Positions 12,401 to 59,833 are shown, counted from the stretch's first letter. The stretch: 64,000 bases of DNA from an uncultured Methanosarcinales archaeon (GCA_964637115.1 CAZWVL010000003.1:77758-141757); one strand, 5' to 3'. Made by a program: numbers and translations. Notes: generated from the letters alone by a model not told the origin.

Positions 12401-13687
12401 GAAGGGCTCTCAAGTGTTGTTGGGTCATCAGGCCTGACACCCACTGATGAAGTCAGACGTTTCATTGGCATGGATGAAGATTATGCCTGGAAAACAACAT
12501 TTATGGTATTTGGAATACCTTTTGAACTTCACGCTTTGTCGGTATCGGTTGAAAACTTGAATAAAATGAAAGACGACCTAGTGGCAATGGCACAAGCGCC
12601 GCCAACAGCGCCAAACGGACCATCTCCTGAAAACATAAAAGCAGCCATTGCCCGCATTTCATTGGAAGTTGGCGTTATTAAGGCAACGCGCGCACTTGCC
12701 ATCAATTCGCTTGACAAAGACCTAGGCATCATACCAAAGACTACAGAAGAAGTTGTAAAAGAAACTGCTGGTGCAGCGCCGGCAGCAGCGTCAGTTGCAG
12801 CCCCGCCAAAACTTCCGCTCAGCATCAACGGCAAAACAGACCTTGCAATTATTACAAAAGGAACAGATATTCAAGTCAAAATAATACTTCCAAAAAACGT
12901 ACAAGCCTTTGAGTACATTGAATTATTCGCATACAAAAGCAATGTTCACATTGCCACCTGGGACCTCAGAAACAACTACAATCCAAGCACGGGTGAGGCA
13001 ACATATATGTTAGGCCCAGACCAGTACGCCAATTTTGTAATAGGCGAAACATACGAATTTGACATGGCGTATAATCCGCCGCACACAATTGGAAACAAAG
13101 TACAAGTGAGAATAATTGTTCCGCCATGCGGAGACGGAAAAATAGACCAAGGAGAAGTATGCGACAGAAAGAGCGATGGAACAGTAATAGCAAGCAATGA
13201 AATGGTTTACAATCCAACCACATTTACTGCATACTGGCAGATTTATGCACCATCGATGGGACCATTCGGAGCGACTGAATATAGAGTATTGTTCAGCAAA
13301 AACATGCAGACGTTCTGTAATGATATCATTGGAGAAGATTGTGATGACAAGGTGGAATACTCTGCAGAAAAAGGATGGTGTTCAGGAGACTGCAAGAAAT
13401 TCATGCCAAGAGTTGGGTGCGTAGATGATGACACAATCGGCGACAGCGGAAGAGCAGCATATCTCACGCCAGAATTCTATTACGAAGGCACGGAAAAAAA
13501 GATGAACAACGTATGGTGGTATCTCTTCAGCGATCCAAACGCGGGAAGAAATGGATGCTATCCAACCACTGAAGAGGCAGGATTGCCTCCATACAACGAT
13601 AAATGGACAGAAGCACCAGTTCCAATAGACTATCCGCAATTTATGACCAAGCCCGCTCCTTTCCAACCTCCAACGGCACAACCATGA
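6455..13687 (+). CDS. Giant Cys-rich surface protein (2410 aa)
   Basis: Uninterrupted 7.2-kb ORF. The signal-like h-region is VALFMAFLIIMLPIVDAQA. N-terminal modules are separated by VDNSPP / YDTGPP junctions, consistent with an Ig-like array. There are many Cys clusters, including CLCIP...C-x8-C, and a CGDGKIDQGEVCD repeat near the C-terminus. The exact start is uncertain: the ATG at 6455 overlaps the upstream stop, but the hairpin lies before the signal peptide. Confidence 0.85.
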   Translation: MDKNTKEEKRKVNYLTRSLSEFFSPTLCKGEKNSPHHRTLARRQLGSVALFMAFLIIMLPIVDAQAIGDQPTAQGEETTVKPLFVNATIPRYPRTMKIDIAGITKPGATITININGADVKKDIIDDGTFLFKQVQLQASNAIIITAELGGETATQTYQADVDNSPPLINITTTPVVTAASSTVKVKVSEPVNLTVQAGNQTNKSYSLQAGSNDVKIELQPGENMVGFTAVDRAGFKSFIEERIVYDTGPPRFEKTNLNQLSPTYRQEVEVKGKLSEPGSVTAFVNGKPQKTEATASDGSFSIKVKLERSLSVTAGSQSASGVTGGAVSIEQGIQWKSKLRLEAIDAAGLKATTEEVEIAYSICGSGTWIDVQLTDPMPDILNPRLIIEGIQQVGIGFNYTYRGGAKAEIDARSIRIRTLMLSPEVRKEFDNNLVMVRAPNVRAQRATKPSGVGYIQVNFNPLEDPWSLPEKDGKKEEAPANATMFDREQRISQHREGDCITPGFGCMKLFLELEIPFTETTRKMAYDPIVRGTLEKDVVEPLTQRTCIDVNIAIDKRVPPDVLPSGLLRASSEFLGAVIQGIDKVLMPIQTIGKYLFYTCVAGQFLSLVPIVLEKYNCEFRKVADVLAGGEGAFDPNVAAINACDAEYGAGSDAADNCNTCHKWKDYRKKFVRTYRQICDRVMCPAAPSLQYYLKTRGRESPTEVKAENAKADPVIAQYAQGGKLFAGSDCAAWVDVNKRKEERGTKKPVLAPRLFFTTDEIQKIYDNWLKHQSNTAGETETGGVNCAGLHPATPECCGYEYMQEWSSACGTSALGQSLDTFDEIKESTCLAAQRSGKNEIGGLEGESIQCNKLLNAASGFCEKNGMPPLTPIRVTTIDARKAESLELQKYAESNDLYIIVQDKGAASSILGVVPTGQSQGYSIKLGLIIKTLEFQKSDKPEIIATSERSKLTEKLDVIEYPEYTAFQTSFFSQEQIDVYREKAAIPPDFKKTLCDAAGKKFGQCNIDEKYIYAQVIQAIGSPDKDYIIKPNEGLINSVRCLCIPTIVGYLKLWRGIMGAVKSCIDTILLTGDGENGMCQALVSRYVCDLLYDALACFTQKFGTGQGRVEKEGGGDIMGALVSAGSEMQREVQGRYGETGLYKAVFVDRKLVHSICMWAFTGTWNFDLGAIFDQAIDEIPISSQALLTPCNRRFVSFNPTTRPGGLVTWVYHFGSFFAAGADAEIELHLVCSDDFTCKESDGFENGKCDCQGKGKRDIVIRPENLPTRAKKNQILSEEIFFTMQAGSGESNVRYDKAYLLYRWKEANKQMKEDKTEPCSIGLTGGGGSMPAFCRWDPFTVSFRCQFGEAAGGIRFKSGKPDYKHPTVKGGVFALDESVSVELQMQQDYPGGEKYNKYLQYTILGPGNKELATNKDRGLILLQTNGDYNKRLSADGTPPVPIEIKREWFTTVEAGKTFSARQWAKSPQNPTGTAADNKVIEDVQLVGLVGAVAAQKQFVLELTRQGDKINYAVYTAGTNDKPGVGEKGGFYVATPALCTGTISGTKITCTPSIAPRPGQPPQPQDTLTITLKADPLYPTVDELIQLHINMNIPRTLAADPCKGDVNNRYQQSFKMMLMAYDADNYGSPSEQVAVDPYTGAEAVFEIPFYAMCATADELKPLEGILGPAEILAGLSKDINAWLAPEKDYKTKLEGFVSQPLKIEQTTSVQNQLDQIIFGETANSVVLEKYKTNLKNITGMDAVKAAVEELYNIIRPPFHAELDLRNVVGLSIDAKNVITNELKGTPNVTKIQDALRPIIPELQKALEAKQKLLTLLPAAAGEKGACPSGKQVPEKTGEYYLCATSLPSDKWVEVTDRQCYAVEKQTCYKLSASNLCYDKNTNGDTFHCDTECKGNSETSSEQRICPKKEEPTCCVVKSTIAQKLLQLKNQIGQQQGDDESFRSSITTTRTNEELITYLVGTGDINVPTLISELKAYASLKNLEREGLSSVVGSSGLTPTDEVRRFIGMDEDYAWKTTFMVFGIPFELHALSVSVENLNKMKDDLVAMAQAPPTAPNGPSPENIKAAIARISLEVGVIKATRALAINSLDKDLGIIPKTTEEVVKETAGAAPAAASVAAPPKLPLSINGKTDLAIITKGTDIQVKIILPKNVQAFEYIELFAYKSNVHIATWDLRNNYNPSTGEATYMLGPDQYANFVIGETYEFDMAYNPPHTIGNKVQVRIIVPPCGDGKIDQGEVCDRKSDGTVIASNEMVYNPTTFTAYWQIYAPSMGPFGATEYRVLFSKNMQTFCNDIIGEDCDDKVEYSAEKGWCSGDCKKFMPRVGCVDDDTIGDSGRAAYLTPEFYYEGTEKKMNNVWWYLFSDPNAGRNGCYPTTEEAGLPPYNDKWTEAPVPIDYPQFMTKPAPFQPPTAQP
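6513..6557. repeat. Perfect 17-bp inverted repeat (hairpin) at the junction of the 677-aa and 2410-aa ORFs
   Basis: GTGAATTTTTCTCCCCC (6513-6529), an 11-nt loop, then GGGGGAGAAAAATTCAC (6541-6557), an exact reverse complement. Confidence 0.9.
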
Positions 13688-14493
13688 CCCTAATTACAAC
13701 CCTCCCCCTCGCCTGGAAGGCATTCACTGAAAACAAGAAGTATTTGATATGGATAATCCTAATAGAATTCGTATTCCTCTTTGTTCTAACTCAAATACAT
13801 TTGATGTACTTCGTGCCAAGCGCAGAAGCAGCAGCAAGAGCAGGAGAAATAATGACGCAAGAAGTACAGAAATTGCCGGAAACAGAAATTTATCAGCTTG
13901 AAACACTGCTTGTGAAAAATGAAGGCTTTATGACAGCATACAACGAGTTGCTTGCCTATATGGGCTTTTTCATAATAAGCCTGTTTATTGCATTTGTTGT
14001 TTTCAGAACTCCATTATGGTATATCTCGCACAAAAGCATACTGAAGAAAATGCCCTGGAAACCAGTGCTGATAAAGTTTCCATTGCTTTCACTGTTCTGG
14101 TTTGTAGTGCTGGTAATAGCTTTTTCACTTTACAGCATTGGCACAGGCAGCACAACAACAGTACTGCCAATTTTCAGCCCGTTCTGGGTGACGATACTAA
14201 TGTACATAGTATTTCTGGCTATCTTTTACTTCTCCCAAATCAGTTTTGCTCTCATCCCGTCACAACAAACCTTTAAGAATACGTTCATCTATGGCACTAG
14301 ACATGCAAAAACAATCATTCCAGCATTCCTCGTCAACGCAATCATTACTTTCATTGTCTGCTCATTGCCATTCAACTGGATTACAACAAAACCACTCATC
14401 TCGCTCGCAATCATACTCATCATCACAATTCCAGCACTTGCATTTGCAAGACTGCACATCATAGTAGCAACATGGCAAAAACCGCAATCATAA
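13684..14493 (+). CDS. Polytopic membrane protein (about 269 aa), apparent paralog of 3546..4427
   Basis: The ATG at 13684 overlaps the giant ORF's TGA (ATGA 13684-13687), and the track start at 13603 is inside the upstream gene. It has 6-7 hydrophobic helices with a soluble helical insert after the first TM. Confidence 0.75.
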   Translation: MTLITTLPLAWKAFTENKKYLIWIILIEFVFLFVLTQIHLMYFVPSAEAAARAGEIMTQEVQKLPETEIYQLETLLVKNEGFMTAYNELLAYMGFFIISLFIAFVVFRTPLWYISHKSILKKMPWKPVLIKFPLLSLFWFVVLVIAFSLYSIGTGSTTTVLPIFSPFWVTILMYIVFLAIFYFSQISFALIPSQQTFKNTFIYGTRHAKTIIPAFLVNAIITFIVCSLPFNWITTKPLISLAIILIITIPALAFARLHIIVATWQKPQS

Positions 14494-15071
14494 CAATATT
14501 GCTGATATTCGTAGTAGTTCTGTTAGTTTACATAGCAGTCAGACAGCCAGCAGTTGTAACAACGCCCGCACAGCCAACGCCAATACAGCAGCTAACGCCA
14601 AGGGCGCCAGCAATAGAAGTCGGCGTGCCAACGCAAAAAGCGCCCGTGACAAAACAACCGGCAGCAGGAATTGAAATAGAAAAAGTCATACCGCAAGAAG
14701 TAAACTTCTGGATAAATGACATAAGAGCGCCAGAAACAACCACGTATGCAGAAGGATTAAACTTCATACCAATCAAGCAAAGCGACATCAAAACATTTGC
14801 AGGAAGCTTTGGACCATACTTTGAAGACCCGACTCCGCATATGAAAGTAGTCCTTTGCGCAGAATATTACAAAGTCGCTGCAGCACCAGCCTGCGAAGTC
14901 GTGCAATTAGTATTCCAAGACAAGTATGCAACGTTCGCACGCGGATACCAATTTGACGAGTACATAGGCGGAATGGCAGCAAAAGACTACGTTGCCTATT
15001 ACACAATTTACGCCGGAGAAGCTCCAGTTGGATACAGCAACAAAGCGGTCATTAGAACAGTAAGAGATTAA
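14472..15071 (+). CDS. N-terminally anchored exported protein (199 aa)
   Basis: TM anchor MAKTAIITILLIFVVVLLVYIAV, a P/T/Q-rich linker, then a ~130-aa globular domain. It overlaps the upstream gene by 22 nt and is the last gene before a T-rich terminator. Confidence 0.75.
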   Translation: MAKTAIITILLIFVVVLLVYIAVRQPAVVTTPAQPTPIQQLTPRAPAIEVGVPTQKAPVTKQPAAGIEIEKVIPQEVNFWINDIRAPETTTYAEGLNFIPIKQSDIKTFAGSFGPYFEDPTPHMKVVLCAEYYKVAAAPACEVVQLVFQDKYATFARGYQFDEYIGGMAAKDYVAYYTIYAGEAPVGYSNKAVIRTVRD

Positions 15072-17504: not shown

Positions 17505-19814
17505 CTATTGCTCCCTATGAATGAAATTCAGCAATGTAATCACCAAAATGCCCATTGCAGCAACCAAGAAAAGCGCAATCTGGACGCCTTTTGAAGCAGC
17601 AACGTCCTGTGGTTCATCAGTCACTGCCCAGCCAACGCGGGGGAAATCAATGTTAGGCATATCAGGTATAGTGCACGCACCATTATTGCAGCCAACTGGG
17701 CATTGGTATGGTTCAACAATACTGGGCACGCCGTTGTTGCAGAAAAGCTCAAGAATATAACAATTTGTTGGCTGGCATGAGGTGACATTTTGATAAGCTC
17801 CTTCTGCTATAATTGCGCAAGTATCAGCCATATTAACATCTGATCCATTAACGTTTGCCGCAATGATTCCTTTCGCAAAGTAATTATTCCCGTTATCAGA
17901 ATCGGTACATACAGGTGCAGCAATCGTGCAACCTGCAGGGCTACGGGATACAATCAATTCTCCGGGCGTTGTACAAGAATAGGTTACGCAACAACCGCCC
18001 TGGCAGCTCGAGCATGACTGCATCTGGCCGGTGCTATTGACAAAACTAGTACAGTTAGTGGTCGGGTTTGTACTGCATCCAGAAGTTCCGGGAACAACCA
18101 TTGCATTAATTGAAGGCCCAAGCATAAAGCTGGCACAAGCGCCATTAGAGCATTGTGCGTTTGAAGGACAGCTCGTCCAGTTACTACCCACGCTACCGCC
18201 GAAAGCCTGTTTATCACCACAGTAGCATTCTAACAACTGGTTAGTGCCATTGGAAGCCTCAAATTCCTGCGAAGTTGAGCACCTATCAGAACAAACTATG
18301 CCTCCGCCCGTGGCATTTCCCTTTTCAGTAATATTCCACCCGCCATCGGAGTCGGAACACGAAACATTTGTAATGTTAGTGATGTTGGTCAAATTAGTAA
18401 TGTTAGTAAGATTAATGGAAATGCTAGTTGTGATGTTCAAGCAATTACAACTCACGCAAACTAATCCAGCGGCGCAGATAGGAGTACCTGGATCGCCGCA
18501 CTGCTCACCAATGTCTGCCCGGCCGTTTCCACATTCTGCCTGAATAAACGGAGCAACAATACACTTGCACTTATCATCACACGCACCGGTGTTAGTAATT
18601 TGCCCAGCCGCGTTCCTGACAAAACACGCAGTTGAAATCAACTGGCCAGTCACAGGGTCACGAATTCCAGGAGGCTCACAATCCTCAATAACGCCTGCAG
18701 CATTCGGCTTCTGAATTAATTTATCCCCGCAAGTGCCAGCGTTTGCTGGCCCTTTAATGCCGCACATGCAATCAGGCTTGCAAACACCAGGGCAAGCAGC
18801 ATCATTGTTTTTATCACACTGCTCGCCAGCGTCAAGCGCCCCATTACCACACTGCACCACAGGAGCAGGAACAAGCAACTTCAACTTATTCAGCAAATCA
18901 CAATCAGACTGATACTTAATGCCATAAACACCGATCTTTGCATCATCAACAGTGCTGGCATATGTTGTGACTGTTAGCCAGTTTGCGCCGGAAAGCCAGA
19001 AAAACATCACCCTTCCAGATACAGTTTCGAGGAAACCACATACATTTCCGCGTTTTGTCCACTTTTGCTCAAAAACTGCAATACTAGTTTCTTTTAGAAG
19101 ATTCTTCTTGAAATTCTCGACATTTTTAGTTTGCAATACAGACACGTCAGTTTTCACGCCATTCAAATGCTCATAGAATGCCGTATATAATGTTCCGCCA
19201 GCATCGCCCGCTGTTTCAGTCTTTGATGACGACTTATATCTGTTATTCTCAATATCTTTCTCAATCAAAATGTCAGAATACTGGGCGCCAGACATTTCAA
19301 ACGCGCCCAATTGCCACTTTTTATTGTTGCAATCCCAAATCTTAAAACCATTATCGTCACGCTTTTCAGTATCGATACACCAGTAGATGACTATATAATT
19401 AGGCCCTGGCAAGAAACGATCAGTAGAGATAGGGACAATGAAAGTTGCTTTGTCCTCTGCCCAAGTTTTCACAATCTTGCCGCTCTGCGAAGTGTCAGCA
19501 AACACTTTCTCCCAAAACTTATACTTTTTGTTAAACGCATATGAAATGGCGTGCACGTAAAACTTTGTCTTGACTGAAGCGGGCTTTTCAACAACAACCT
19601 TAACTTTGTCGCCGGCCTTCACCAAAGTCGGATCAATGTCAGTGTACTTTATTTCACCTGCCCACTTCGGCAAAGCACCAGGAGAAATTGGTACGCCCCC
19701 ATACGCCTTTCCAGCAGCAGATTCTTCGCCAGGCGGCGGAGGATTAGGAGGAAATTCGTCTGCACACGCAACTAGCAAAAAAAGAACAATAACAAAAGGA
19801 ATCAAACTTTTCAT
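17505..19814 (-). CDS. Lipobox-containing Cys-rich surface protein with C-terminal TM anchor (769 aa)
   Basis: Signal plus lipobox FLLVAC followed by PPNPPPPG. Cys repeats CGNGALDAGEQCD and CGNGRADIGEQCG resemble the Myxococcus-type Cys-rich repeat / DUF4215 pattern. There is an array of six consecutive NxT/S sequons (NLTNITNLTNITNITNVS). The C-terminal TM is IALFLVAAMGILVITLL. Confidence 0.8.
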   Translation of the reverse strand: MKSLIPFVIVLFLLVACADEFPPNPPPPGEESAAGKAYGGVPISPGALPKWAGEIKYTDIDPTLVKAGDKVKVVVEKPASVKTKFYVHAISYAFNKKYKFWEKVFADTSQSGKIVKTWAEDKATFIVPISTDRFLPGPNYIVIYWCIDTEKRDDNGFKIWDCNNKKWQLGAFEMSGAQYSDILIEKDIENNRYKSSSKTETAGDAGGTLYTAFYEHLNGVKTDVSVLQTKNVENFKKNLLKETSIAVFEQKWTKRGNVCGFLETVSGRVMFFWLSGANWLTVTTYASTVDDAKIGVYGIKYQSDCDLLNKLKLLVPAPVVQCGNGALDAGEQCDKNNDAACPGVCKPDCMCGIKGPANAGTCGDKLIQKPNAAGVIEDCEPPGIRDPVTGQLISTACFVRNAAGQITNTGACDDKCKCIVAPFIQAECGNGRADIGEQCGDPGTPICAAGLVCVSCNCLNITTSISINLTNITNLTNITNITNVSCSDSDGGWNITEKGNATGGGIVCSDRCSTSQEFEASNGTNQLLECYCGDKQAFGGSVGSNWTSCPSNAQCSNGACASFMLGPSINAMVVPGTSGCSTNPTTNCTSFVNSTGQMQSCSSCQGGCCVTYSCTTPGELIVSRSPAGCTIAAPVCTDSDNGNNYFAKGIIAANVNGSDVNMADTCAIIAEGAYQNVTSCQPTNCYILELFCNNGVPSIVEPYQCPVGCNNGACTIPDMPNIDFPRVGWAVTDEPQDVAASKGVQIALFLVAAMGILVITLLNFIHREQ

Positions 19815-20707
19815 GGCTTTTTCAAATCTGACGGGTATTTCTTCAAGTAAGCGCCGATTATTTCAGCGTTAGCGGCTTCTTTCTCAAATGTTTCCACATA
19901 AACAATTTCCTTGCCACTGGACCAAACTGCAATCCTGTGGTCCTCCTCAGAGAGGAAGAGCGCCAAGTTATGACCGGCATGCGTCTTCCAGCCATTAACG
20001 ATAATATCTTTGAACATGGTAGCAAGAGTCTTGTCCAATTCCTGACGGTTGTTGAAGTCAAAGATATGCACCAAAACAACAACACCGGTTTTCGGTTCAC
20101 GGTACTTGGCATCGTATCTAATAACATTAATGTCTGCAAAATTATCCTTCTCAGCAGTTGTTGACATCACCTTAAATGGACCAACAGTCATATTAAGCAC
20201 GAACTGCTCAACGTTTGCCAGCTCTGGAATCTTGCCAGTCGCCTTGCCCTTGACTGTAAACTTAACAAGCATCCACTTCTTGCCGTTGCACTCCCACTTG
20301 CCGGCAGCTTTCGAACAGGCATAAACAACAAAGTAGTTTTCGCCCTCAACAAACTTGGAAGCATCAACCGTCACGCTTCCAATGGCCTGGCCTTTCAACC
20401 ACTGCTCAGCTGCTTCGCCCTGCAGGGAAAACTTCTCCCAAGTTCTCGTAACTGAGTTAAAGACATAGCCGTTAGAATAAACGTAGTCAAAGTTTGAAAC
20501 AGAAACAACAACACCATCACCAAAATACGCTTCAGAAGGCGTAATAGCAACATTTTTTGCCTCAGCAGCCCAGGATGGCATTCCTGCAGCCATGCCTGCT
20601 ATCGCTTTTCCAATTTCTCCGCCCGGAGGAGGAGGGTTGGGAGGCAGCTCATCCTTGCACGCTACAAGTAAGAATAGTAACAATACTGCAAGTGCAACAC
20701 GTTTCAT
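19811..20707 (-). CDS. Lipobox protein, paralog of the N-terminal domain of 17505..19814 (298 aa)
   Basis: The signal FLLVAC followed by ELPPNPPPPGGE is nearly identical to its neighbour. Shared motifs are NY(F/I)V(V/I)Y.C...KW.CN.KKW. ATGA overlap (19811-19814) with the downstream gene. Confidence 0.8.
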   Translation of the reverse strand: MKRVALAVLLLFLLVACKDELPPNPPPPGGEIGKAIAGMAAGMPSWAAEAKNVAITPSEAYFGDGVVVSVSNFDYVYSNGYVFNSVTRTWEKFSLQGEAAEQWLKGQAIGSVTVDASKFVEGENYFVVYACSKAAGKWECNGKKWMLVKFTVKGKATGKIPELANVEQFVLNMTVGPFKVMSTTAEKDNFADINVIRYDAKYREPKTGVVVLVHIFDFNNRQELDKTLATMFKDIIVNGWKTHAGHNLALFLSEEDHRIAVWSSGKEIVYVETFEKEAANAEIIGAYLKKYPSDLKKP

Positions 20708-20756: not shown

Positions 20757-21455
20757 TTACTTAGGTATTTCTTTGATGCGTTCATCAATGAACTTCTCGT
20801 TCCAGCCATTGGCAAGCAAGTGCATTCTCAATGTTTCCTGCTTGTATCCGGCATTCGTGTAATTCATCAAATACTGCCTGACTAGTTTCTTATCTTCCAC
20901 TTCTTCTTTCTTCTTATGAGCGATACTTGCAGTAATCATGCCTGCAATAATGATGAGAGCCAGTACGGATAACGTGACGCTCAGGATTGCATTCTTCTTT
21001 TGAGAACCCTGCAAGTTTGTGATAGCATCAAAGAAAGGAGCCTCAAAAGAAGGCCTTTGCTTCAAGTTTTCAATATCGACCGTGGCAGCAGTCATCTGAC
21101 TCTGCACGGCGTCAAGCCGTGAAGACATATCAGAAGCAATTTTCAACTGCGCTTCAGCAGTTGCTAATCTCTGCTCCCAAGCAGGCAGCAAGTTCAACTT
21201 CTGCTCGATGGAATCCAATCTGGCAAGAAGAGCCTGCATGTCCTCAGATTTTGGAGCTGGTTTGGGCGGCGTAACAATTGCTGGTGGAGAAACATTAACT
21301 GCTGGCAGAACCTGGTCTGATTCCATTCCTGGAGGCGCAGGAGGCTCTGGAAGATCCAACGGCTGGAAACCCGTTAACGAATTATGTCCATTAGAAGCAG
21401 CCAAAAACAATGTCAGCGCTGCTATGATTAGTATTGCTGCCACACTCTTTTTCAT
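20757..21455 (-). CDS. Bitopic membrane protein with coiled-coil ectodomain (232 aa)
   Basis: N-terminal signal, a P-rich linker, a heptad-like helical region, an internal TM (LSVTLSVLALIIIAGMITASIA) and a basic cytoplasmic tail. Confidence 0.65.
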   Translation of the reverse strand: MKKSVAAILIIAALTLFLAASNGHNSLTGFQPLDLPEPPAPPGMESDQVLPAVNVSPPAIVTPPKPAPKSEDMQALLARLDSIEQKLNLLPAWEQRLATAEAQLKIASDMSSRLDAVQSQMTAATVDIENLKQRPSFEAPFFDAITNLQGSQKKNAILSVTLSVLALIIIAGMITASIAHKKKEEVEDKKLVRQYLMNYTNAGYKQETLRMHLLANGWNEKFIDERIKEIPK

Positions 21456-21513
21456 ATATGCGTTCTAGTGATAATTACTATTTAAAGGTTTATGGTACGG
21501 CTTAACGCAATAT

Positions 21514-21523
21514 TTTTAAATAG
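21514..21523 (+). promoter_or_regulatory. TATA-like box of TPTS paralog A
   Basis: TTTTTAAATA lies ~80 nt upstream of the GTG start. The same core is found upstream of paralogs B and C. Confidence 0.5.
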
Positions 21524-21598
21524 GAGGGCTATTGTTAAATATCAAAAGTGGGTTGATATGGTATAGGTCTGTGTAGCAGTTAGCCAGAGAGTAACACA

Positions 21599-23125
21599 GT
21601 GGAAAAAGAGAGGTTTGTGGGAATAGTTGCTATCGTATTTACTTTGTTAGTTCTTAGTGTCACGATTGTTTCAGCACAGCCAGCAAGCCCATTAGAAGGA
21701 GGAATTGTGCACAGGTTTTTTAATTGGATTTTAAATTTCTTTTCCTCGTCAGCCAGCATTACTGGCGCGCAAGTGAGCGAACCACTTGAAAGTCCGCCAG
21801 TGTTTGGATTAATGCAAACACCAACGCCGACTTCGACTCCGACTTCTACTCCGACAAGTACTCCGACGTCTACTCCGACATCCACTCCTACTTCAACGCC
21901 AACGTCTACGCCGACTTCAACTCCTACGAGTACTCCGACGTCAACGCCTACTTCTACGCCTACGAGTACTCCGACGTCAACACCAACCTCTACACCAACG
22001 TCAACCCCGACAAGTACTCCGACGTCTACTCCAACTTCGACTCCGACTTCTACTCCAACATCTACTCCTACTTCAACGCCGACCAGCACTCCAACTTCAA
22101 CGCCGACTTCAACCCCGACAAGCACGCCGACTTCTACTCCTACATCAACTCCTACAAGCACTCCGACTTCAACTCCAACGTCAACGCCAACAAGTACTCC
22201 GACTTCTACACCAACGTCAACTCCAACAAGCACTCCGACGTCCACTCCAACATCGACTCCGACTTCTACTCCTACTTCAACGCCTACACGTACTCCAACT
22301 TCGACTCCAACGAGTACGCCAACGTCAACACCAACATCTACTCCAACTTCGACTCCGACTTCAACTCCTACAAGTACTCCGACGTCTACACCAACTTCAA
22401 CACCAACGTCAACTCCAACTTCCACTCCCACTTCAACGCCTACACGTACGCCAACGTCAACTCCTACTTCAACTCCGACAAGTACTCCGACATCTACGCC
22501 GACTTCTACTCCGACCGCAACGCCAACGTCTGTTGCGCCTCCTCCGCCTCCGCCACCACCTCCTCCGCCTCCTCCGCCTCCTCCTGTATCACAAAGCAGA
22601 CCTACAGGCAATACAAATTCAGCTTCGCCTAATCAGGGATGCTGTTGCACCGGAATTTGCAGTGCCAATTGCAATGGATGCGGTACTTGTGGCGCCTTGG
22701 GTCCTCTGTCCTCTTCCAATCCATGTCCAGGGCAAACACTAAATACCCAATTTAAGACATGCTGCGGAAAATCATCACTAGCTCCAACTCCACCTCAAAA
22801 AACACTGGCACCAACGCCTCAGCCGACGTCAATGTCAACCTCATCTGGCCCTGATGAAGCCAAGGGCGAGGAAATTGCGGATGCGGGTTGGGGAGCAGTG
22901 AATGTAGCGCCTCCTCCATTGCCCGAGACACAAAATCTGGGAGAAGTGGTGGGCGAACAGGGTCCAATGGGGGCTTTCGCAGGAAAAACAAACACTAGAG
23001 GCGCCTTAATTGCGGGCATCACGATAATACTCGGTCTTGTGGCAGTAATCTGGGTGCTCGTATACAGGCACAAGCCTCCAAAAAACATCATGTCGTTTAA
23101 GTTCAAATTCTCAAAGAAACGGTAA
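21599..23125 (+). CDS. Mucin-like (TPTS)n stalk surface protein, paralog A (508 aa)
   Basis: GTG start. Signal peptide ...LSVTIVSA/QPA, a conserved ~45-aa tip (FFNWILNFF...ITGAQV...PPVFGLMQT), ~238 aa of TPTS repeats, P16, a Cys-rich segment, a conserved GAFAGKTNTRGALIAG motif, a TM and a basic tail. Confidence 0.85.
   Translation: MEKERFVGIVAIVFTLLVLSVTIVSAQPASPLEGGIVHRFFNWILNFFSSSASITGAQVSEPLESPPVFGLMQTPTPTSTPTSTPTSTPTSTPTSTPTSTPTSTPTSTPTSTPTSTPTSTPTSTPTSTPTSTPTSTPTSTPTSTPTSTPTSTPTSTPTSTPTSTPTSTPTSTPTSTPTSTPTSTPTSTPTSTPTSTPTSTPTSTPTSTPTSTPTSTPTSTPTSTPTSTPTRTPTSTPTSTPTSTPTSTPTSTPTSTPTSTPTSTPTSTPTSTPTSTPTSTPTRTPTSTPTSTPTSTPTSTPTSTPTATPTSVAPPPPPPPPPPPPPPPPVSQSRPTGNTNSASPNQGCCCTGICSANCNGCGTCGALGPLSSSNPCPGQTLNTQFKTCCGKSSLAPTPPQKTLAPTPQPTSMSTSSGPDEAKGEEIADAGWGAVNVAPPPLPETQNLGEVVGEQGPMGAFAGKTNTRGALIAGITIILGLVAVIWVLVYRHKPPKNIMSFKFKFSKKR
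21818..22531 (+). repeat. 12-bp period coding tandem repeat (Thr-Pro-Thr-Ser)n
   Basis: ACN CCN ACN (TCN/AGY) units with heavily varied third positions. A run of 16 Pro codons follows at 22538-22585. Confidence 0.95.
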
Positions 23126-23205
23126 AATAGTCGCAAATACCTTATTGTTTATGAATTAATTTAATATTTGAAATCAATTTTGAAATCTTGTTAATGTTTT
23201 AAAAA

Positions 23206-23223
23206 CATAACGTTTTTAAATAC
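23206..23223 (+). promoter_or_regulatory. Conserved BRE/TATA-like element of paralog B
   Basis: CATAACGTTTTTAAATAC. The first 15 nt, CATAACGTTTTTAAA, recur exactly upstream of paralog C (25679-25693). Confidence 0.55.
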
Positions 23224-23302
23224 TATGTTCTATTCGTTCTATATCAAAAATTGGTTGATGAGTTCAAGGGTTGCGTATAACAATTAGTTAGTGAGAGTTA
23301 CA

Positions 23303-25666
23303 GTGGAAAAAGAGAGGTTTGTGGGCATAATTGCGATATTATTTACTTTATTAGTTCTAAGTGTTAATATTGTTTCAGCACAACCTGCCAGCCCATTGGA
23401 AGGAGGACTCGTGCACAAGCTTTTTGCGTGGGTTGCAGACTTTTTCGTATCATCGTCCAGCATAACCGGCGCGCAAGTGATCGAACCGCCATTTGAGAGT
23501 CCACCTGTGTTTGGATTAATGCAAACACCAACCCCAACTTCAACACCAACTTCTACACCGACGTCAACGCCAACGTCAACTCCTACAAGTACGCCAACGT
23601 CAACTCCAACATCGACTCCTACAAGTACTCCGACGTCTACTCCTACTTCAACGCCAACCAGCACTCCAACGTCTACACCAACTTCTACTCCGACAAGTAC
23701 GCCTACGTCAACGCCTACTTCAACTCCAACCTCAACTCCGACACCAACTTCAACTCCTACTTCAACGCCGACTTCTACACCGACATCAACACCAACCTCT
23801 ACTCCGACTCCAACTCCTACTTCAACGCCGACTTCTACACCGACATCTACGCCAACAAGTACACCGACTTCAACTCCGACAAGTACGCCGACAAGTACAC
23901 CAACGTCTACTCCAACTTCAACGCCAACCAGCACTCCAACTCCTACCTCAACACCGACATCAACTCCGACACCAACTTCTACTCCAACCAGTACTCCGAC
24001 GTCTACTCCTACTTCAACGCCAACCAGCACTCCAACGTCTACACCAACTTCTACTCCGACATCAACTTCAACTCCTACAAGCACGCCAACGTCAACTCCA
24101 ACATCAACTCCTACTTCAACGCCAACGTCTACACCGACCAGTACTCCGACTTCTACACCAACTTCAACTCCGACAAGTACGCCGACTTCGACTCCTACTT
24201 CAACTCCGACTCCAACAAGCACGCCAACTTCTACACCGACATCAACACCAACCTCTACTCCGACAAGTACGCCGACATCTACGCCAACAAGCACTCCAAC
24301 GTCTACACCAACGTCAACTCCGACACCGACTTCAACTCCAACCTCAACACCGACTTCAACGCCAACGTCAACTCCAACAAGTACGCCTACTTCAACTCCG
24401 ACATCTACGCCAACGAGTACTCCGACTTCGACTCCTACTTCAACTCCTACGAGTACTCCAACTTCAACGCCAACCTCTACTCCAACTTCGACACCAACGT
24501 CAACTCCTACAAGCACTCCAACATCAACACCAACAAGCACACCAACGTCTACTCCAACTTCAACTCCGACTAGTACTCCAACTCCTACCTCAACGCCAAC
24601 TTCAACGCCTACTTCAACCCCAACAAGTACACCAACTTCGACGCCTACAAGTACTCCGACTTCGACTCCAACTTCAACGCCAACAAGCACTCCAACGAGT
24701 ACACCGACTTCAACTCCAACTTCTACGCCGACTTCTACTCCAACCCGTACACCAACTTCGACTCCGACATCAACACCAACCTCTACTCCGACGAGCACTC
24801 CAACCAGTACTCCTACGTCAACACCAACTTCAACTCCAACTAGAACACCAACGTCAACACCTACTTCGACTCCGACTTCAACGCCAACAAGTACGCCAAC
24901 TTCTACACCAACATCAACCCCAACCAGCACTCCAACTCCTATTACGCCAACATTACCCCCGGGAGTTGGCAGTACATCTACAGGTAGTGGAAGCAGCCCA
25001 TACACTACTTCTAACCCAATCTATTGTAATTGTGTGATCGCAGGCTCGGACCCCAAAAAACCAAAGTATTCTCCCTCGGGATGTATCCTACCTCCCAGTA
25101 TGCGCGGCAACACTCCATTATGTTCAGCGACGATCGGTTCAGAAGCAGCATTAGTCACGGGAGGAATAGACAAAACCAAGGCATGTATGAAGATGTGCGC
25201 TGTGGATGGTGGGACTGTATGTCAGTGTGAAATTCAGTGCATTTATGGATCTGAAACTTACATTAAAGACTGTGAGAGAGATGGCGGTGATCCTTGTGAT
25301 TGCATTAGAATGTATACAAGCAGCGGTCTTCAAGATGCAGCTCCAAGTTCTGAGACTATAGAAGAGGAGACTGTGCAGGAAGAGCCTGTGCAGGAGGAGA
25401 CTGACACTTCAAATGATGACAATGGCGATATTGCTCCTTCAAGTGTTACTATCCAGACGGCTATGAATCGGGAATCTTATTGGACTAAATCAGGCCTTGG
25501 AAAAGCAGCAGGTGCGTTCACGCAAAGAACAAACGTCAGAGGAGCGTTAATAGCAGGTGTAGCATTATTATTGGGACTTGTGGCAATAATCTGGGCGCTC
25601 CTGTACAGAAACAAGGTTAATAGAAGTTCTAAGCCGGCAAAACTTAATCGTGCCAAGAAACGATAA
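23303..25666 (+). CDS. Mucin-like (TPTS)n stalk surface protein, paralog B (about 787 aa)
   Basis: The GTG GAA AAA GAG AGG TTT GTG start context is identical to paralog A, and the track start at 23291 is 4 codons upstream. The architecture is the same, with ~475 aa of TPTS repeats, a different Cys-rich segment, an acidic stretch, and a conserved GAFTQRTNVRGALIAG motif plus TM. Confidence 0.85.
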   Translation: MEKERFVGIIAILFTLLVLSVNIVSAQPASPLEGGLVHKLFAWVADFFVSSSSITGAQVIEPPFESPPVFGLMQTPTPTSTPTSTPTSTPTSTPTSTPTSTPTSTPTSTPTSTPTSTPTSTPTSTPTSTPTSTPTSTPTSTPTSTPTPTSTPTSTPTSTPTSTPTSTPTPTPTSTPTSTPTSTPTSTPTSTPTSTPTSTPTSTPTSTPTSTPTPTSTPTSTPTPTSTPTSTPTSTPTSTPTSTPTSTPTSTPTSTSTPTSTPTSTPTSTPTSTPTSTPTSTPTSTPTSTPTSTPTSTPTSTPTPTSTPTSTPTSTPTSTPTSTPTSTPTSTPTSTPTSTPTPTSTPTSTPTSTPTSTPTSTPTSTPTSTPTSTPTSTPTSTPTSTPTSTPTSTPTSTPTSTPTSTPTSTPTSTPTSTPTSTPTSTPTPTSTPTSTPTSTPTSTPTSTPTSTPTSTPTSTPTSTPTSTPTSTPTSTPTSTPTRTPTSTPTSTPTSTPTSTPTSTPTSTPTSTPTRTPTSTPTSTPTSTPTSTPTSTPTSTPTSTPTPITPTLPPGVGSTSTGSGSSPYTTSNPIYCNCVIAGSDPKKPKYSPSGCILPPSMRGNTPLCSATIGSEAALVTGGIDKTKACMKMCAVDGGTVCQCEIQCIYGSETYIKDCERDGGDPCDCIRMYTSSGLQDAAPSSETIEEETVQEEPVQEETDTSNDDNGDIAPSSVTIQTAMNRESYWTKSGLGKAAGAFTQRTNVRGALIAGVALLLGLVAIIWALLYRNKVNRSSKPAKLNRAKKR
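23525..24952 (+). repeat. 12-bp period coding tandem repeat (Thr-Pro-Thr-Ser)n, with occasional TPTP units
   Basis: The same ACN CCN ACN TCN/AGY unit for about 1.4 kb. Confidence 0.95.
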
Positions 25667-25678
25667 AACCGTGACTAT

Positions 25679-25695
25679 CATAACGTTTTTAAAAT
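25679..25695 (+). promoter_or_regulatory. Conserved BRE/TATA-like element of paralog C
   Basis: CATAACGTTTTTAAAAT lies ~30 nt upstream of the GTG at 25723, which implies a near-leaderless transcript. Confidence 0.55.
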
Positions 25696-25722
25696 CCTGC
25701 CTATTCGTATGCTGAGAGAGAA

Positions 25723-26934
25723 GTGGAAAAAGAGAAGAGTGTAGGGATTGTTGCAATCGTGTTCACTTTGTTAGTTCTTAGTGTTACGGTTGTTTCAGCT
25801 GCGCAGTCAGCAACTTCAGAAAAAGGATTTTTCTCCAAATTTGTTGATTGGATAAAGAGCTTCTTCACTTCATCAGGCGTAACTGGCGCACAAGTGAGCA
25901 TTCCACAAACAAGTCCTCCAACATTTGGACTGATGCAGACAGAAACGCCTACCGAAACTCCTACGTCTACGCCAACAGAAACTCCAACTGAGACTCCTAC
26001 TTCTACTGTAACACCTACCGAAACTCCTACTTCTACCGCTACACCTACAGAAACTCCAACTTCAACTCCTACTTCGACACCAACTGCCATTCCAACAGGC
26101 ATTCCAACCTCAACGCCAACGCCGACAGGTACGCCAACTATGACTTGTGGACGATGCGAAACCCTAGTATGCCCGACACCCACGCCGACACCGACAGAGC
26201 AGGTGCCAGATAGCGTGATTCAACAGGTTCCACCACCTGCATGCACGTGCGTGCCAATTCCAGGCTGTAGCCAAGTTTCTGGCGGAACCAATCCAATGCA
26301 AGCTCCTTTTTGCAGAAAAGGTTCGGAATATGATTTAATTGAATTTTTGAAAAGAAATCCAGGTCCGGTTCGCTATAGCAGCAATGAAAAATGGCATTAC
26401 ATTGACAACGAAGGTACCAAAAGAGAATTAAAAAGAGAGGGAATCCTAACGGTTGGCCCATTGTGTTGCGCAGATTGCTGTAGCGCGTTCTGCAGTGAAA
26501 TAGATCCAAGATTCCTTTGCCTTGCACCTGTAATTTATGATGAGAAAAATAATCCGGTAATGCTCCAAGCTCCACACATTTGCAGGCACGCAGTGATTCC
26601 ATTGGATGCGGAAAAGTGCAAAGATGTAGGAGGGCTGGCTTGCCTTAGAGGTTTGCCAGTTGTTGGTAAGGAGCCATCAACGGGGAAAGAGAGGAGATCT
26701 AAAACGGACGAGTCTGCCCAGCAGATAACTTCAAAACGGTCTAAGCAAAGCCCTGCTGCTGAAAATCAAATGCCAATCAGTGCGCCAGGCGTCGGGACAA
26801 GCACGGGTGCATTTGCAGGAAACGCGAACTCCAGAGGTGCATTGATAGCAGGCAATGTACTATTGCTTATACTTGTGGCAATTATCTGGGTGCTCGTGTA
26901 TAGGAGAATGCCTCCAAAAAGTTCTGACATTTGA
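25723..26934 (+). CDS. Mucin-like stalk surface protein, diverged paralog C (403 aa)
   Basis: GTG start. It has a conserved signal, a tip (FFSKFVDWIKSFF...VTGAQV...PPTFGLMQT), a short TETPTS-type repeat, a large Cys-rich domain, and GAFAGNANSRGALIAG plus a TM. Confidence 0.85.
   Translation: MEKEKSVGIVAIVFTLLVLSVTVVSAAQSATSEKGFFSKFVDWIKSFFTSSGVTGAQVSIPQTSPPTFGLMQTETPTETPTSTPTETPTETPTSTVTPTETPTSTATPTETPTSTPTSTPTAIPTGIPTSTPTPTGTPTMTCGRCETLVCPTPTPTPTEQVPDSVIQQVPPPACTCVPIPGCSQVSGGTNPMQAPFCRKGSEYDLIEFLKRNPGPVRYSSNEKWHYIDNEGTKRELKREGILTVGPLCCADCCSAFCSEIDPRFLCLAPVIYDEKNNPVMLQAPHICRHAVIPLDAEKCKDVGGLACLRGLPVVGKEPSTGKERRSKTDESAQQITSKRSKQSPAAENQMPISAPGVGTSTGAFAGNANSRGALIAGNVLLLILVAIIWVLVYRRMPPKSSDI
25939..26139 (+). 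repeat. Degenerate T/E/P/S coding repeat
   Basis: TETPTETPTSTPTETP... units, a shorter and more diverged version of the arrays in paralogs A and B. Confidence 0.85.
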
Positions 26935-27022
26935 AAAACTATGACTTTTTTGTCACAAAGGGTTAAATCTTAAGGAAACATAGAGTTCTATATTGTGACA
27001 ACAATGTCACGGAGACATCACT

Positions 27023-27232
27023 ATGGCAAACGAAGAACAAATAGGTTTTCACAAAGGAGCACTGACAACCCTTGCCAAAGAACGGCAGGAAATGGTTAGA
27101 ATCCTACAGATAGTAGAACAACTAATGCAAGCACACATAAAAGCACTCAAAGACATGGGTGTAGACTTGGAAGCAGAAGCGGCAAAAACAGAGAAAAAAC
27201 CGCTTGAAGAAAAGCTCAAGAGAGGAGTATAA
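27023..27232 (+). CDS. Small helical protein (69 aa), first gene of a three-gene unit
   Basis: Predicted all-helical, K/E-rich C-terminus. Its stop TAA shares 1 nt with the next ATG (27232). Confidence 0.5.
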   Translation: MANEEQIGFHKGALTTLAKERQEMVRILQIVEQLMQAHIKALKDMGVDLEAEAAKTEKKPLEEKLKRGV

Positions 27233-27945
27233 TGTACGGAATGGGTGGGTACGGCGGAAGTTCCGGATATGGAAGCTCTGGCTACTCACAAACATCAGGA
27301 TACAGCAGTGCAGCAGGATATTCTTCATCTAACAGTTATGCGGGCAGTTCTGCAGGACCAGGAAACTATCAAGCATCAGAACAAGCACAAATGTCCCACA
27401 CAGAAGACTTCCTGGCAGAAAACAGACCGTGGACACCAATAATATCAAACTTAGGCGAAGTCAAGGAAATCGTTGAACAAACCTTTGAAAAAATGACTGG
27501 CCAGGAATTTCCGCAAGACAGCATCAAAATAATAATTTGTGATGAAAAGCAATTCAAAGAATTAAGCCCCAACACAAGTCCAGGAGTAGTCGGATTCAGC
27601 TTCAACAAATACGGAAAAGGAATATCAGAAATATACATTAAACAAGACCATCTTGACTCAGTATTGCTAACAATCGGACACGAACTAGGCCACGTACTCG
27701 GACCAACACTACCAAACGGACAAGATGAAGAAGCAAAAGCACATGCATTTTCATTAGCTTGGATTGAAACAATACGCGATAATAATATTGGCGGATTGCA
27801 GCCAAACATTGCGCCAAACCCGGCACACAATGGCCTGCACGACGTCGCATTTGATTTTGTAAAGTACTTAATGAACACCGGCTCGAGTTCATTTGATATT
27901 TTTAAAACACTCGCACATGGACTAACAAGCATAGTAGCAACATGA
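27232..27945 (+). CDS. HExxH (putative zinc metalloprotease-like) protein with N-terminal G/S/Y low-complexity domain
   Basis: The first ~50 aa are almost only G/S/Y/A/Q and include 8 Tyr, 4 of them in (G/S)Y(G/S) triplets. The C-terminal domain has the HELGHV motif with a downstream acidic/His region. Confidence 0.65.
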   Translation: MYGMGGYGGSSGYGSSGYSQTSGYSSAAGYSSSNSYAGSSAGPGNYQASEQAQMSHTEDFLAENRPWTPIISNLGEVKEIVEQTFEKMTGQEFPQDSIKIIICDEKQFKELSPNTSPGVVGFSFNKYGKGISEIYIKQDHLDSVLLTIGHELGHVLGPTLPNGQDEEAKAHAFSLAWIETIRDNNIGGLQPNIAPNPAHNGLHDVAFDFVKYLMNTGSSSFDIFKTLAHGLTSIVAT

Positions 27946-54568: not shown

Positions 54569-54653
54569 GCCTCCGTAGCTTAGTAGCTATAGCGCGACAT
54601 TGGTAACGATGCCAAAGATGTCGAGGTCGCGGGTGCAACTCCCGTCGGAGGCT
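54569..54653 (+). tRNA. tRNA-Thr (anticodon GGU) with a 12-nt intron at 37/38 and non-canonical D/T loops
   Basis: Acceptor GCCTCCG/CGGAGGC and anticodon stem CGACA/TGTCG with loop TTGGTA[ACGATGCCAAAG]A. Intron CCAA pairs with TTGG (32-35), leaving an AGA 3' bulge, which is a relaxed BHL motif. T arm GCGGG-TGCAACT-CCCGT, and D loop AGTAGCTA lacks GG. Confidence 0.75.
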
Positions 54654-59760: not shown

Positions 59761-59833
59761 GAGCCCGTGGTCTAGCGGTTATGACGGCTCGTTGACGTCG
59801 AGCAAGTCCCCAGTTCGAACCTGGGCGGGCTCA
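59761..59833 (+). tRNA. tRNA-Val (anticodon GAC)
   Basis: Acceptor GAGCCCG/CGGGCTC, D loop with GG, anticodon arm GCTCG-TTGACGT-CGAGC, T arm CCCAG-TTCGAAC-CTGGG and discriminator A. Confidence 0.9.

Follow-up and report, generated by a model that had tools for sequence, protein, structure and literature searches.

Three tandem genes in a Woesearchaeota-like archaeon encode predicted stalked surface proteins with a terminal aromatic helix and a conserved membrane anchor

The serine-rich repeat glycoproteins GspB, Fap1 and SraP combine a conserved leader, a long O-glycosylated Ser/Thr stalk, a variable binding region and a C-terminal anchor, and their length varies between strains. They belong to Gram-positive bacteria, are exported by the accessory SecA2/Y2 route with a KxYKxGKxW signal, are anchored through LPXTG and sortase, and carry the binding region distally. 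Syndecans set a glycosylated, poorly conserved ectodomain on a highly conserved transmembrane (TM) segment and tail, while the TcMUC proteins of Trypanosoma cruzi have conserved ends and a hypervariable middle and are encoded in multigene arrays. Amphipathic helices that meet membranes include the C-terminal anchor of E. coli PBP5 and the ALPS lipid-packing sensors, the latter cytosolic and eukaryotic. ALPS helices carry bulky hydrophobic residues on one face and a Gly/Ser/Thr-rich polar face of low charge (PMC4569407). Among archaea, the PGF-CTERM substrates of archaeosortase A, such as the Haloferax surface-layer (S-layer) glycoprotein, have a Thr-rich O-glycosylated stretch and a portable signature followed by a TM helix and basic residues (PMC6098224). 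A survey of Nanobdella aerobiophila described surface proteins with signal peptides, C-terminal TM helices and predicted glycosylation, for which a part in host interaction was proposed and which have Ig-like, pectin-lyase-like or lectin-like folds and many N-glycosylation sequons (bioRxiv 10.1101/2023.10.27.564410), and in another DPANN system cryo-electron tomography shows nanotubes as contact structures (PMC11329633). How DPANN archaea recognise and attach to partner cells is largely unexplained. Here we analyse three adjacent genes, A, B and C, at positions 21,456 to 26,934 of a 64,000-nucleotide stretch of DNA deposited for an uncultured Methanosarcinales archaeon (GCA_964637115.1 CAZWVL010000003.1:77758-141757; hereafter the window). 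They appear to represent a previously unannotated class of protein whose low-complexity stalk is flanked by a conserved aromatic helix on one side and, on the other, by a conserved membrane anchor that is portable.

The predicted layout of A, B and C is that of type I membrane proteins (Table 1). Alignment bears out the common signal peptide, mature N-terminus, T/P/S stalk, Cys-rich segments and C-terminal block listed in the initial annotation, and the order of these parts supports its topology, with the amphipathic aromatic helix distal and the variable Cys module close to the membrane. The span given there does hold three + strand genes, with two corrections: positions 21456-21598 are promoter and intergenic DNA 5′ of gene A rather than gene, and the homologous start of gene B is the GTG at 23303, the ORF-list start at 23291 (ORF, open reading frame) being set aside. 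The first codons, GTG GAA AAA GAG, are identical in all three. As judged from the sequence, A, B and C are paralogs, each with its own candidate promoter. Local hidden Markov models of the tip and of the C-terminus match only these three among 766 six-frame window ORFs, with E = 1e-30 to 1e-37; the next-best ORF has E > 0.2.

The signal peptide follows the consensus MEKE(R/K).VGI.AI.FTLLVLSV..VSA in the A/B/C protein alignment, and we infer that it is cut at an AxA-type site; distant members keep small residues at −1 and −3 (VNA↓Y, ASA↓H) and the h-region drifts. A class III (pilin/archaellin-like) signal was rejected because EKERFVG↓IVAIV has V, not a charged residue, at −2 and an AxA-type site follows the h-region. 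The head of about 50 aa that follows, the tip of the initial annotation, runs from a Phe/Trp-rich amphipathic helix through (I/V)TGAQV to the stalk-entry motif SPP(V/T)FGLMQT. Phe and Trp line one face of the helix and the other is mostly Ser/Gly/Asn/Thr, being S/N/G/H-rich in A and in the relatives on contigs L027 and L028 and carrying four charges in C and in the relative on L021. Its amphipathicity, which the initial annotation had proposed to check, is strong: the hydrophobic moment (muH) of 14-mers is 0.43-0.65, in the top 0.2-1.3% of shuffles. AlphaFold2 (AF2), run on gene C with a 3-row alignment, places a helix at residues 33-50 with low confidence. A related sequence feature occurs more widely in these lineages. 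Several unrelated secreted proteins carry a 'TG box' (variants SLTGFQ, SITGLQ, WITGAQI, SPTGAVA, TPTGAVV and EPTGNAV) 3-14 residues past an N-terminal hydrophobic segment; the carriers lie at window 20757-21455 (−), L005 17366-18070, L015 17090-17929 and 14087-14470, and L025 2408-3079 and 3116-3763.

The stalk lengths first reported, 238, 475 and 67 aa, hold, the last comprising 53 aa of strict repeat and a looser TP stretch. Gene A has 56 TPTS units in 37 DNA versions and gene B has 110 in 59, and the units differ only at third positions of the + frame or by TCN/AGY serine switches. Since this codon variation is synonymous in the + frame, the + strand is the coding one and the minus-strand VGVEVGV ORFs opposite the stalks are shadows; they were rejected as genes on this ground. 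Purifying selection appears to keep the protein sequence of the stalks while their codons scramble. The ectodomains of A, B and C hold no N-x-S/T sequon, and their stalks are probably O-glycosylated and extended. Fully stretched, the stalks of C, A and B would measure about 15, 60-75 and 120-150 nm, so that at 15-150 nm a stalk would reach past the S-layer.

Between stalk and anchor lie Cys-rich modules that are mutually unrelated (BLASTP, best E = 0.9), each with an even number of cysteines (10 in A, 12 in B, 16 in C). Pfam, including the Myxococcus-type Cys-rich repeat DUF4215, gives no match for any of the three. A DUF4215-like repeat, CG[ND]G....GE.CD, can be seen by eye in relatives and in the ORF at 17505-19814 and is absent from A, B and C; measured against DUF4215, with its cutoff of 27 bits, the relative P0025 reaches 17. 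Among 5.8e9 proteins the C module matches only itself and its ortholog on L001, a contig of a close strain with syntenic copies B′ and C′. Comparison of the two strains separates the parts of the proteins. Flanking DNA is 85-93% identical, and the head and anchor of B are 96% and 94% identical at the protein level, whereas the B module (window ~24963-25521, about 560 nt) and its L001 counterpart (1820-2228, about 410 nt) have no DNA similarity save a 27-nt island. No donor of either version was found. The C module is about 79-88% identical to that of L001, where the C stalk is 20 aa longer. As far as two strains indicate, the ends are conserved, the middle can be exchanged and the stalk is elastic in length. 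The window holds no second DNA copy of any of the modules that could serve as a template, which speaks for replacement and not for mutagenesis of the diversity-generating retroelement type; variation by such an element was rejected on this count, on the indel-rich character of the replacement and on the lack of a reverse transcriptase among the scanned ORFs.

All three proteins end in GAF...N.RGALIAG (G458-A-F...N465.R467GALIAG in the numbering of A), followed by a hydrophobic helix of 22 residues, and close with YR and a basic tail. The consensus over a wider set is (T)GA(F/Y)xx(K/R)TNx(R/K)GA(L/F)I(A/G)G, the TM helix and an R..PPK tail; cytoplasmic tails are 9-45 aa long with conserved PPK and F.F.F features. 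The (T/M/A)GAF motif does not abut the TM helix, from which 7-8 residues separate it, and within 'TGA' the T varies, only G and A being invariant. The full proteins give nothing above threshold in Pfam or NCBIfam (NCBIfam E <= 0.01), and isolated C-termini and tip, searched with E allowed to reach 10, attain the cutoff of no sorting-signal model: the PEP-, PEF-, VPXXXP-, CGP-, PVV-CTERM, LPXTG and other such models of NCBIfam all stay below their curated values, and the sole sorting-model match, PVV-CTERM over the TM helix of gene C only, reaches 15.8 bits against a cutoff of 27. Profile searches of the PDB yield nothing beyond TM segments that look similar without reaching significance, those of syndecan-2 (E = 0.036) and integrin alpha-1. 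Neither end thus resembles a described family or sorting signal in Pfam or NCBIfam, and the view of the C-terminal block as something other than PGF-CTERM is upheld. Archaeosortase genes, which the initial annotation had asked for, are absent, as are exosortase and rhomboid genes, among the ORFs of the 64-kb window scanned with Pfam and NCBIfam.

Profile searches recover both conserved ends outside the source genome, contrary to a restriction to this one genome. A word-indexed search of 5.8e9 proteins with a tip-plus-anchor profile returned fragments of A, B and C and the close strain L001; with a 12-sequence anchor profile its output was dominated by hydrophobic words. An exhaustive HMMER scan of 1.84e9 representatives with the tip-plus-anchor profile gave 12 matches, one of them a contig-end tip fragment (P0021) and seven sharing the anchor only. 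Tip patterns had no match across GTDB representative contigs, a set that does not include the source genome. A degenerate anchor DNA pattern picked out seven loci in JGI metagenomes, of which L021 alone stands up, the remaining six having arisen by chance, out of frame, in unrelated DNA of high GC content.

Six-frame extension of the matches reveals the stalk, Cys module and anchor layout on L004, L025, L026, L027, L028 and L029. On L026, L025, L028/L029 and L004 the ORFs extend 5′ into (NTPT)n, (TP)n or S/P-polyPro stalks up to the contig edge, and L027 933-2057 is a complete 365-aa gene in which a hydrophobic N-terminal segment leads into a small head with Cys residues that closes with SEFGPMQTEPPTPTP; the (TP)n stalk, a module rich in Cys and the anchor come after it. 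Immediately 5′ of this gene is one for a family-2 glycosyltransferase (L027 178-894), with a possible link to stalk glycosylation. Tip-bearing genes occur on L003, L002/L021, L027 and L028, and a tip gene stands directly 3′ of an anchor gene on L028 (GGFWSAVWHGILNFFGGSTITGAQT), L027 (DGFWSSVWGGIQSFFSGFLLTG) and L002/L021; tandem arrays are common in the family. A giant protein headed by the signal peptide and tip (L021 1730-8023, JGI Ga0247727_10027740, with the same start at L002 4541) exceeds 2,098 aa in an ORF still open at the contig end; past a small head with Cys residues and a TP stalk it comprises two domains of the self-cleaving HINT type (PF07591, E = 2e-21), Q/P-rich repeats, Cys-rich segments, a multi-pass membrane region and a lamin-tail-like domain.

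The aromatic peptide also occurs at the other end of proteins that have no anchor. E.GFFS(K/R)F..W(I/L)..(F/L)F is the C-terminal end of a secreted protein at L026 1843-2571 (EEPGFFSRFWGWLAGLFN), and a related aromatic C-terminus, TTGATVTNQKPSILNSFFSWLGWLP, with the tail TGATVTNQKPSILNSFFSWLGWLP, closes the secreted, TM-less protein at L002 1100-2374. Its place at the end of anchorless proteins argues for a surface-binding element rather than a mere part of an export leader, and its distribution suggests a portable terminal hook. These copies support a binding role and are silent on whose surface is bound.

The records themselves account for the scarcity of full-length relatives. The gene calls of both JGI and NCBI settle on the shadow ORF of the minus strand or on an internal Met as start, and every short-read contig that carries p232, the gene left of gene A, ends about 660 nt away, inside the gene A repeat. 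Databases therefore hold only C-terminal fragments, and the true distribution is probably underestimated. By these sequence comparisons, A, B and C belong to an unannotated family of narrow distribution that annotation systematically misses; the literature searched describes nothing like it.

Tentatively, and somewhat short of even confidence, we favour reading A, B and C as type I, probably O-glycosylated tethers whose far end presents an aromatic helix able to bind lipid. After Sec export and cleavage at the AxA-type site, the TM helix would hold each protein permanently in the cell membrane, where the small-residue face G-A-x-x-A-G may let anchors pair with one another or with a common partner. 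The extended, glycosylated stalk would carry the head past the S-layer, and the distal helix would bind a hydrophobic or lipid surface and so tether the cell to a host, a neighbouring cell or a particle. Tandem duplication, changes in stalk length and cassette-like replacement of the module would diversify the set. The initial annotation had proposed contact or insertion peptides directed at another cell; a surface- or lipid-binding role agrees with the hydrophobic moment and with the terminal copies, while contact with another cell and contact with the own membrane look alike in sequence. Four observations weigh against the tether. The complete L027 relative has anchor and stalk without the helix, so that a member of the family can do without it. 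The distal part amounts to only about 50 aa, unlike the large binding domain usual at that place, so the helix could lie on the own membrane. AF2 gives no usable model of C (mean pLDDT 40, pTM 0.21; not used for fold search). Finally, the invariant TGAQV resembles the lineage-wide post-signal TG box, and with the small residues at −1 and −3 this means that the helix might be cut off.

Rather unlikely, in our estimate, is a self-anchored loop or surface coat, in which the helix would sit in the outer leaflet or S-layer of its own cell, both ends would be held, and the stalks would serve as a hydrated, protease-resistant coat or spacer. Both conserved parts are, as predicted, membrane-active elements; the long N-terminal hydrophobic segment of the L027 protein, without a clear AxA site, suggests an N-terminus kept at the membrane, and C-terminal helix copies on anchorless secreted proteins would most simply tether these to the surface of their producer. 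Size-variable repeat coats are known elsewhere, in the Vsa and Vlp proteins of Mycoplasma. Yet a Pro-rich rod of 475 aa is ill suited to fold back, a simple coat needs no three stalk lengths with the same ends, and the sequence does not tell own from foreign membrane.

Doubtful, too, is the possibility that both ends are removable signals. A bipartite leader would be cut at TGA↓Q, GA(F/Y) would be the C-terminal site of a sortase-, rhomboid- or signal-peptidase-like enzyme, and the mature stalk with its Cys module would be released or re-attached to lipid or S-layer. TGA, a spacer of 5-10 aa and a helix do recur in three contexts, namely the anchor (TGAF-x7-R-TM), the tail of the L002 1100-2374 protein and, mirrored, the N-terminal head; TG boxes stand 3-8 aa past the N-terminal hydrophobic segment of several unrelated secreted proteins; and the anchor, which is portable across unrelated ectodomains, has the order of motif, TM and basic cluster found in sortase and archaeosortase substrates (PMC6098224). 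A good AxA site already follows the h-region, however, no CTERM model matches (PVV-CTERM scoring below its cutoff, in C only), and of TGA the anchor keeps only G and A throughout. The sorting or processing role first suggested for the C-terminal block is thus possible and is weakened by tails whose length and conservation contrast with the short, basic termini of sorting signals, by the spacing of the motif from the helix and by the lack of an archaeosortase, exosortase or rhomboid gene in the 64-kb window.

An extended form of the tether, to which we assign a low probability, is a 'fishing-line' system. A helix sensing lipid packing would be held 15-150 nm out on glycosylated rods of graded length where it would capture a host or prey cell by its membrane or insert into that membrane. 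It would serve, too, as a portable N- or C-terminal hook, on the HINT-containing L021 giant among others, and the TGA boxes that adjoin leader, C-terminal hook and TM anchor alike would be the cleavage sites of one surface protease that releases or hands over the tethers.

We think it very improbable that the head is an assembly module, whose aromatic helices bundle, or whose ITGAQV strand docks into a partner, so that oligomers linked at their tips, fibres or a canopy over the S-layer would arise. Self-association is common among Phe-rich amphipathic helices, heads and anchors are almost identical in the three paralogs, and the anchor has a GxxxG-like small-residue face with the dimerising syndecan-2 TM as its best, non-significant, PDB profile match; the very different stalk lengths nevertheless argue against a mixed bundle held at both ends, the heptad pattern is absent beyond 14-17 residues and AF2 offers no structural support. 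That the repeat is non-coding or mis-assembled, or that the minus-strand ORFs are the true genes, is a reading to which the database gene calls and the contig breaks within the repeat could lead, and which we reject with next to no doubt, given that unit variation is limited to synonymous + frame positions, that the + ORFs are unbroken between the GTG start with its signal peptide and the anchor, both in the three paralogs and in L001 as an independent assembly, and that unrelated lineages share the layout.

The window is archaeal in its gene content: besides a 2-oxoacid dehydrogenase operon and an H+-PPase it has an AMP-phosphorylase-type gene and the GTPase NOG1. The latter shares 74-81% identity with NOG1 of metagenome-assembled genomes labelled Woesearchaeota or Nanoarchaeia, and the host lineage appears Woesearchaeota-like (DPANN). 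Two sister genomes, L005 and L010, have the conserved gene order NOG1, lipoproteins, p232, p69, p237 and a nucleotidyltransferase, with p232 abutting p69, so that the slot that holds A, B and C (window 21456-27022) is empty there (L005 18070-18398, L010 16882-17015); at L015 17930-19280 it is filled by a PIN-like/antitoxin pair. The empty slot marks the cluster as accessory cargo in a variable site. A run of surface-protein genes lies 5′ of it, including the pilin-type protein, the Cys-rich giant of 2410 aa, two lipobox proteins, of which that at 17505-19814 has CGNG..GEQCD Cys repeats and 15 N-glycosylation sequons, and p232. Directly 3′ of the slot in all relatives is a gene (27232-27945, + strand) whose product has a Gly/Ser/Tyr-rich low-complexity N-terminus and a HELGH metalloprotease-like motif and no Pfam match. 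Elsewhere in the window, Rfam lists a tRNA at 54569-54653 (+) that ARAGORN misses, and the ARAGORN tRNA-Val at 59761-59833 (+) is absent from the Rfam list at gathering score.

Table 1 Features of the A/B/C genes and of the flanking region, in window coordinates
Feature	Position	Strand	Description
TATA-like box TTTAAATA	21515..21522	+	84 nt 5′ of gene A start
Gene A	21599..23125	+	508 aa: signal peptide, tip, 238-aa stalk, polyPro + Cys-rich module, anchor
A signal peptide MEKERFVGIVAIVFTLLVLSVTIVSA	21599..21676	+	aa 1-26; predicted cleavage VSA↓Q
A head	21677..21820	+	helix IVHRFFNWILNFFS ~aa 35-50, Ser linker, ITGAQV aa 54-59, SPPVFGLMQT
A stalk	21821..22534	+	238 aa of (TPTS)n
A module	22535..22969	+	Pro16 run, CCCTGICSANCNGCGTCG-type Cys cluster (10 Cys), P/T/acidic linker
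A anchor	22970..23125	+	GAFAGKTNTRGALIAG, TM helix, YRHKPPK..FKFKFSKKR tail, stop
TATA-like box TTTAAATA	23215..23222	+	88 nt 5′ of gene B start; same context as A box
Gene B	23303..25666	+	787 aa: signal peptide, tip, 475-aa stalk, Cys-rich + acidic module, anchor
B head	23381..23527	+	LVHKLFAWVADFF helix, ITGAQV, SPPVFGLMQT
B stalk	23528..24952	+	475 aa of (TPTS)n, occasional TPTP
B module	24953..25510	+	12 Cys + acidic linker; ~24963-25521 replaced in sister strain L001
B anchor	25511..25666	+	GAFTQRTNVRGALIAG, TM helix, basic tail, stop
TATA-like box TTTAAAAT	25688..25695	+	35 nt 5′ of gene C start
Gene C	25723..26934	+	403 aa: signal peptide, tip, short stalk, large Cys-rich module, anchor
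C head	25801..25941	+	GFFSKFVDWIKSFF helix, VTGAQV, SPPTFGLMQT
C stalk	25942..26100	+	53 aa of T(E/S)TP repeats; ~67 aa with looser TP stretch
C module	26101..26805	+	16 Cys, orphan sequence, basic/polar linker
C anchor	26806..26934	+	GAFAGNANSRGALIAG, TM helix, YRRMPPKSSDI, stop
Shadow ORFs VGVEVGVDVGV... opposite stalks	21580-22611, 23284-25005, 25701-26183	-	343, 573, 160 aa
p232, left slot border	20757..21455	-	not a family member; signal peptide, SLTGFQ TG box, coiled-coil-like region, TM, cytoplasmic domain
p69, right slot border	27023..27232	+	adjoins p232 in sister genomes
Pilin-type (class III-like) N-terminus MNKKKGQITIFIIIGIILLL	4429-6462	+	KKG↓QITIF
2410-aa ORF	6455-13687	+	59 Cys, no Pfam domain
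Small MAKTAIITILLI... protein	14472-15071	+	kept across Woesearchaeota loci
Two overlapping lipobox proteins	17505-19814 and 19811-20707	-	LVAC then DE(F/L)PPNPPPPG; N-terminal domains paralogous; kept in sister genomes

Should the helix be shown to bind membranes, the locus would suggest in concrete terms how an uncultured symbiont might make first contact; should the TGA and GA(F/Y) boxes be processing sites, they would point to a new archaeal route of surface sorting. The practical consequence is a blind spot, in that the calling of shadow ORFs and breaks in repeats hide such a family from protein databases.

Set beside the described systems, A, B and C follow the theme of the stalked type I surface glycoprotein and, in the motif and model comparisons that gave a clear answer, match none of the known classes tested. 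In their workings they would come closest to the serine-rich repeat adhesins of bacteria and to the mucin- or syndecan-type type I proteins of eukaryotes. They share with the PGF-CTERM substrates an archaeal origin, predicted Sec export, a Thr-rich stretch and, in outline, a C-terminal motif followed by TM helix and basic residues. They differ in having no PGF motif or model match, in placing GA(F/Y) about 8 residues before the helix, in their long conserved tails and in a Thr-rich stalk that is N-terminal and distal instead of adjoining the anchor; no archaeosortase gene is seen in the window. Similarly, a special N-terminal region, a long Ser/Thr-repeat stalk, a variable region and a conserved C-terminal anchor recall GspB, Fap1 and SraP, whereas KxYKxGKxW, LPXTG and matches to the corresponding models are absent, the host is archaeal and there is no sequence relationship. 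The syndecan-2 TM, the top PDB match of the anchor profile, aligns as AVIAGGV...LVYRMRKK with ALIAGIT...LVYRHKPPK; the match is not significant, which makes this an analogy and not homology, and both syndecans and TcMUC are eukaryotic and lack the distal aromatic helix. That helix, as predicted, partly resembles those of ALPS and PBP5 in being short, aromatic on one face, mostly Gly/Ser/Thr on the polar face and terminal in the protein, and is unlike ALPS in that some members of the family (C, L021) carry 3-4 charges. Compared with the Nanobdella aerobiophila surface proteins, the ectodomains of A, B and C have no sequon or recognisable fold, but instead present a low-complexity stalk with a conserved helix at its end.

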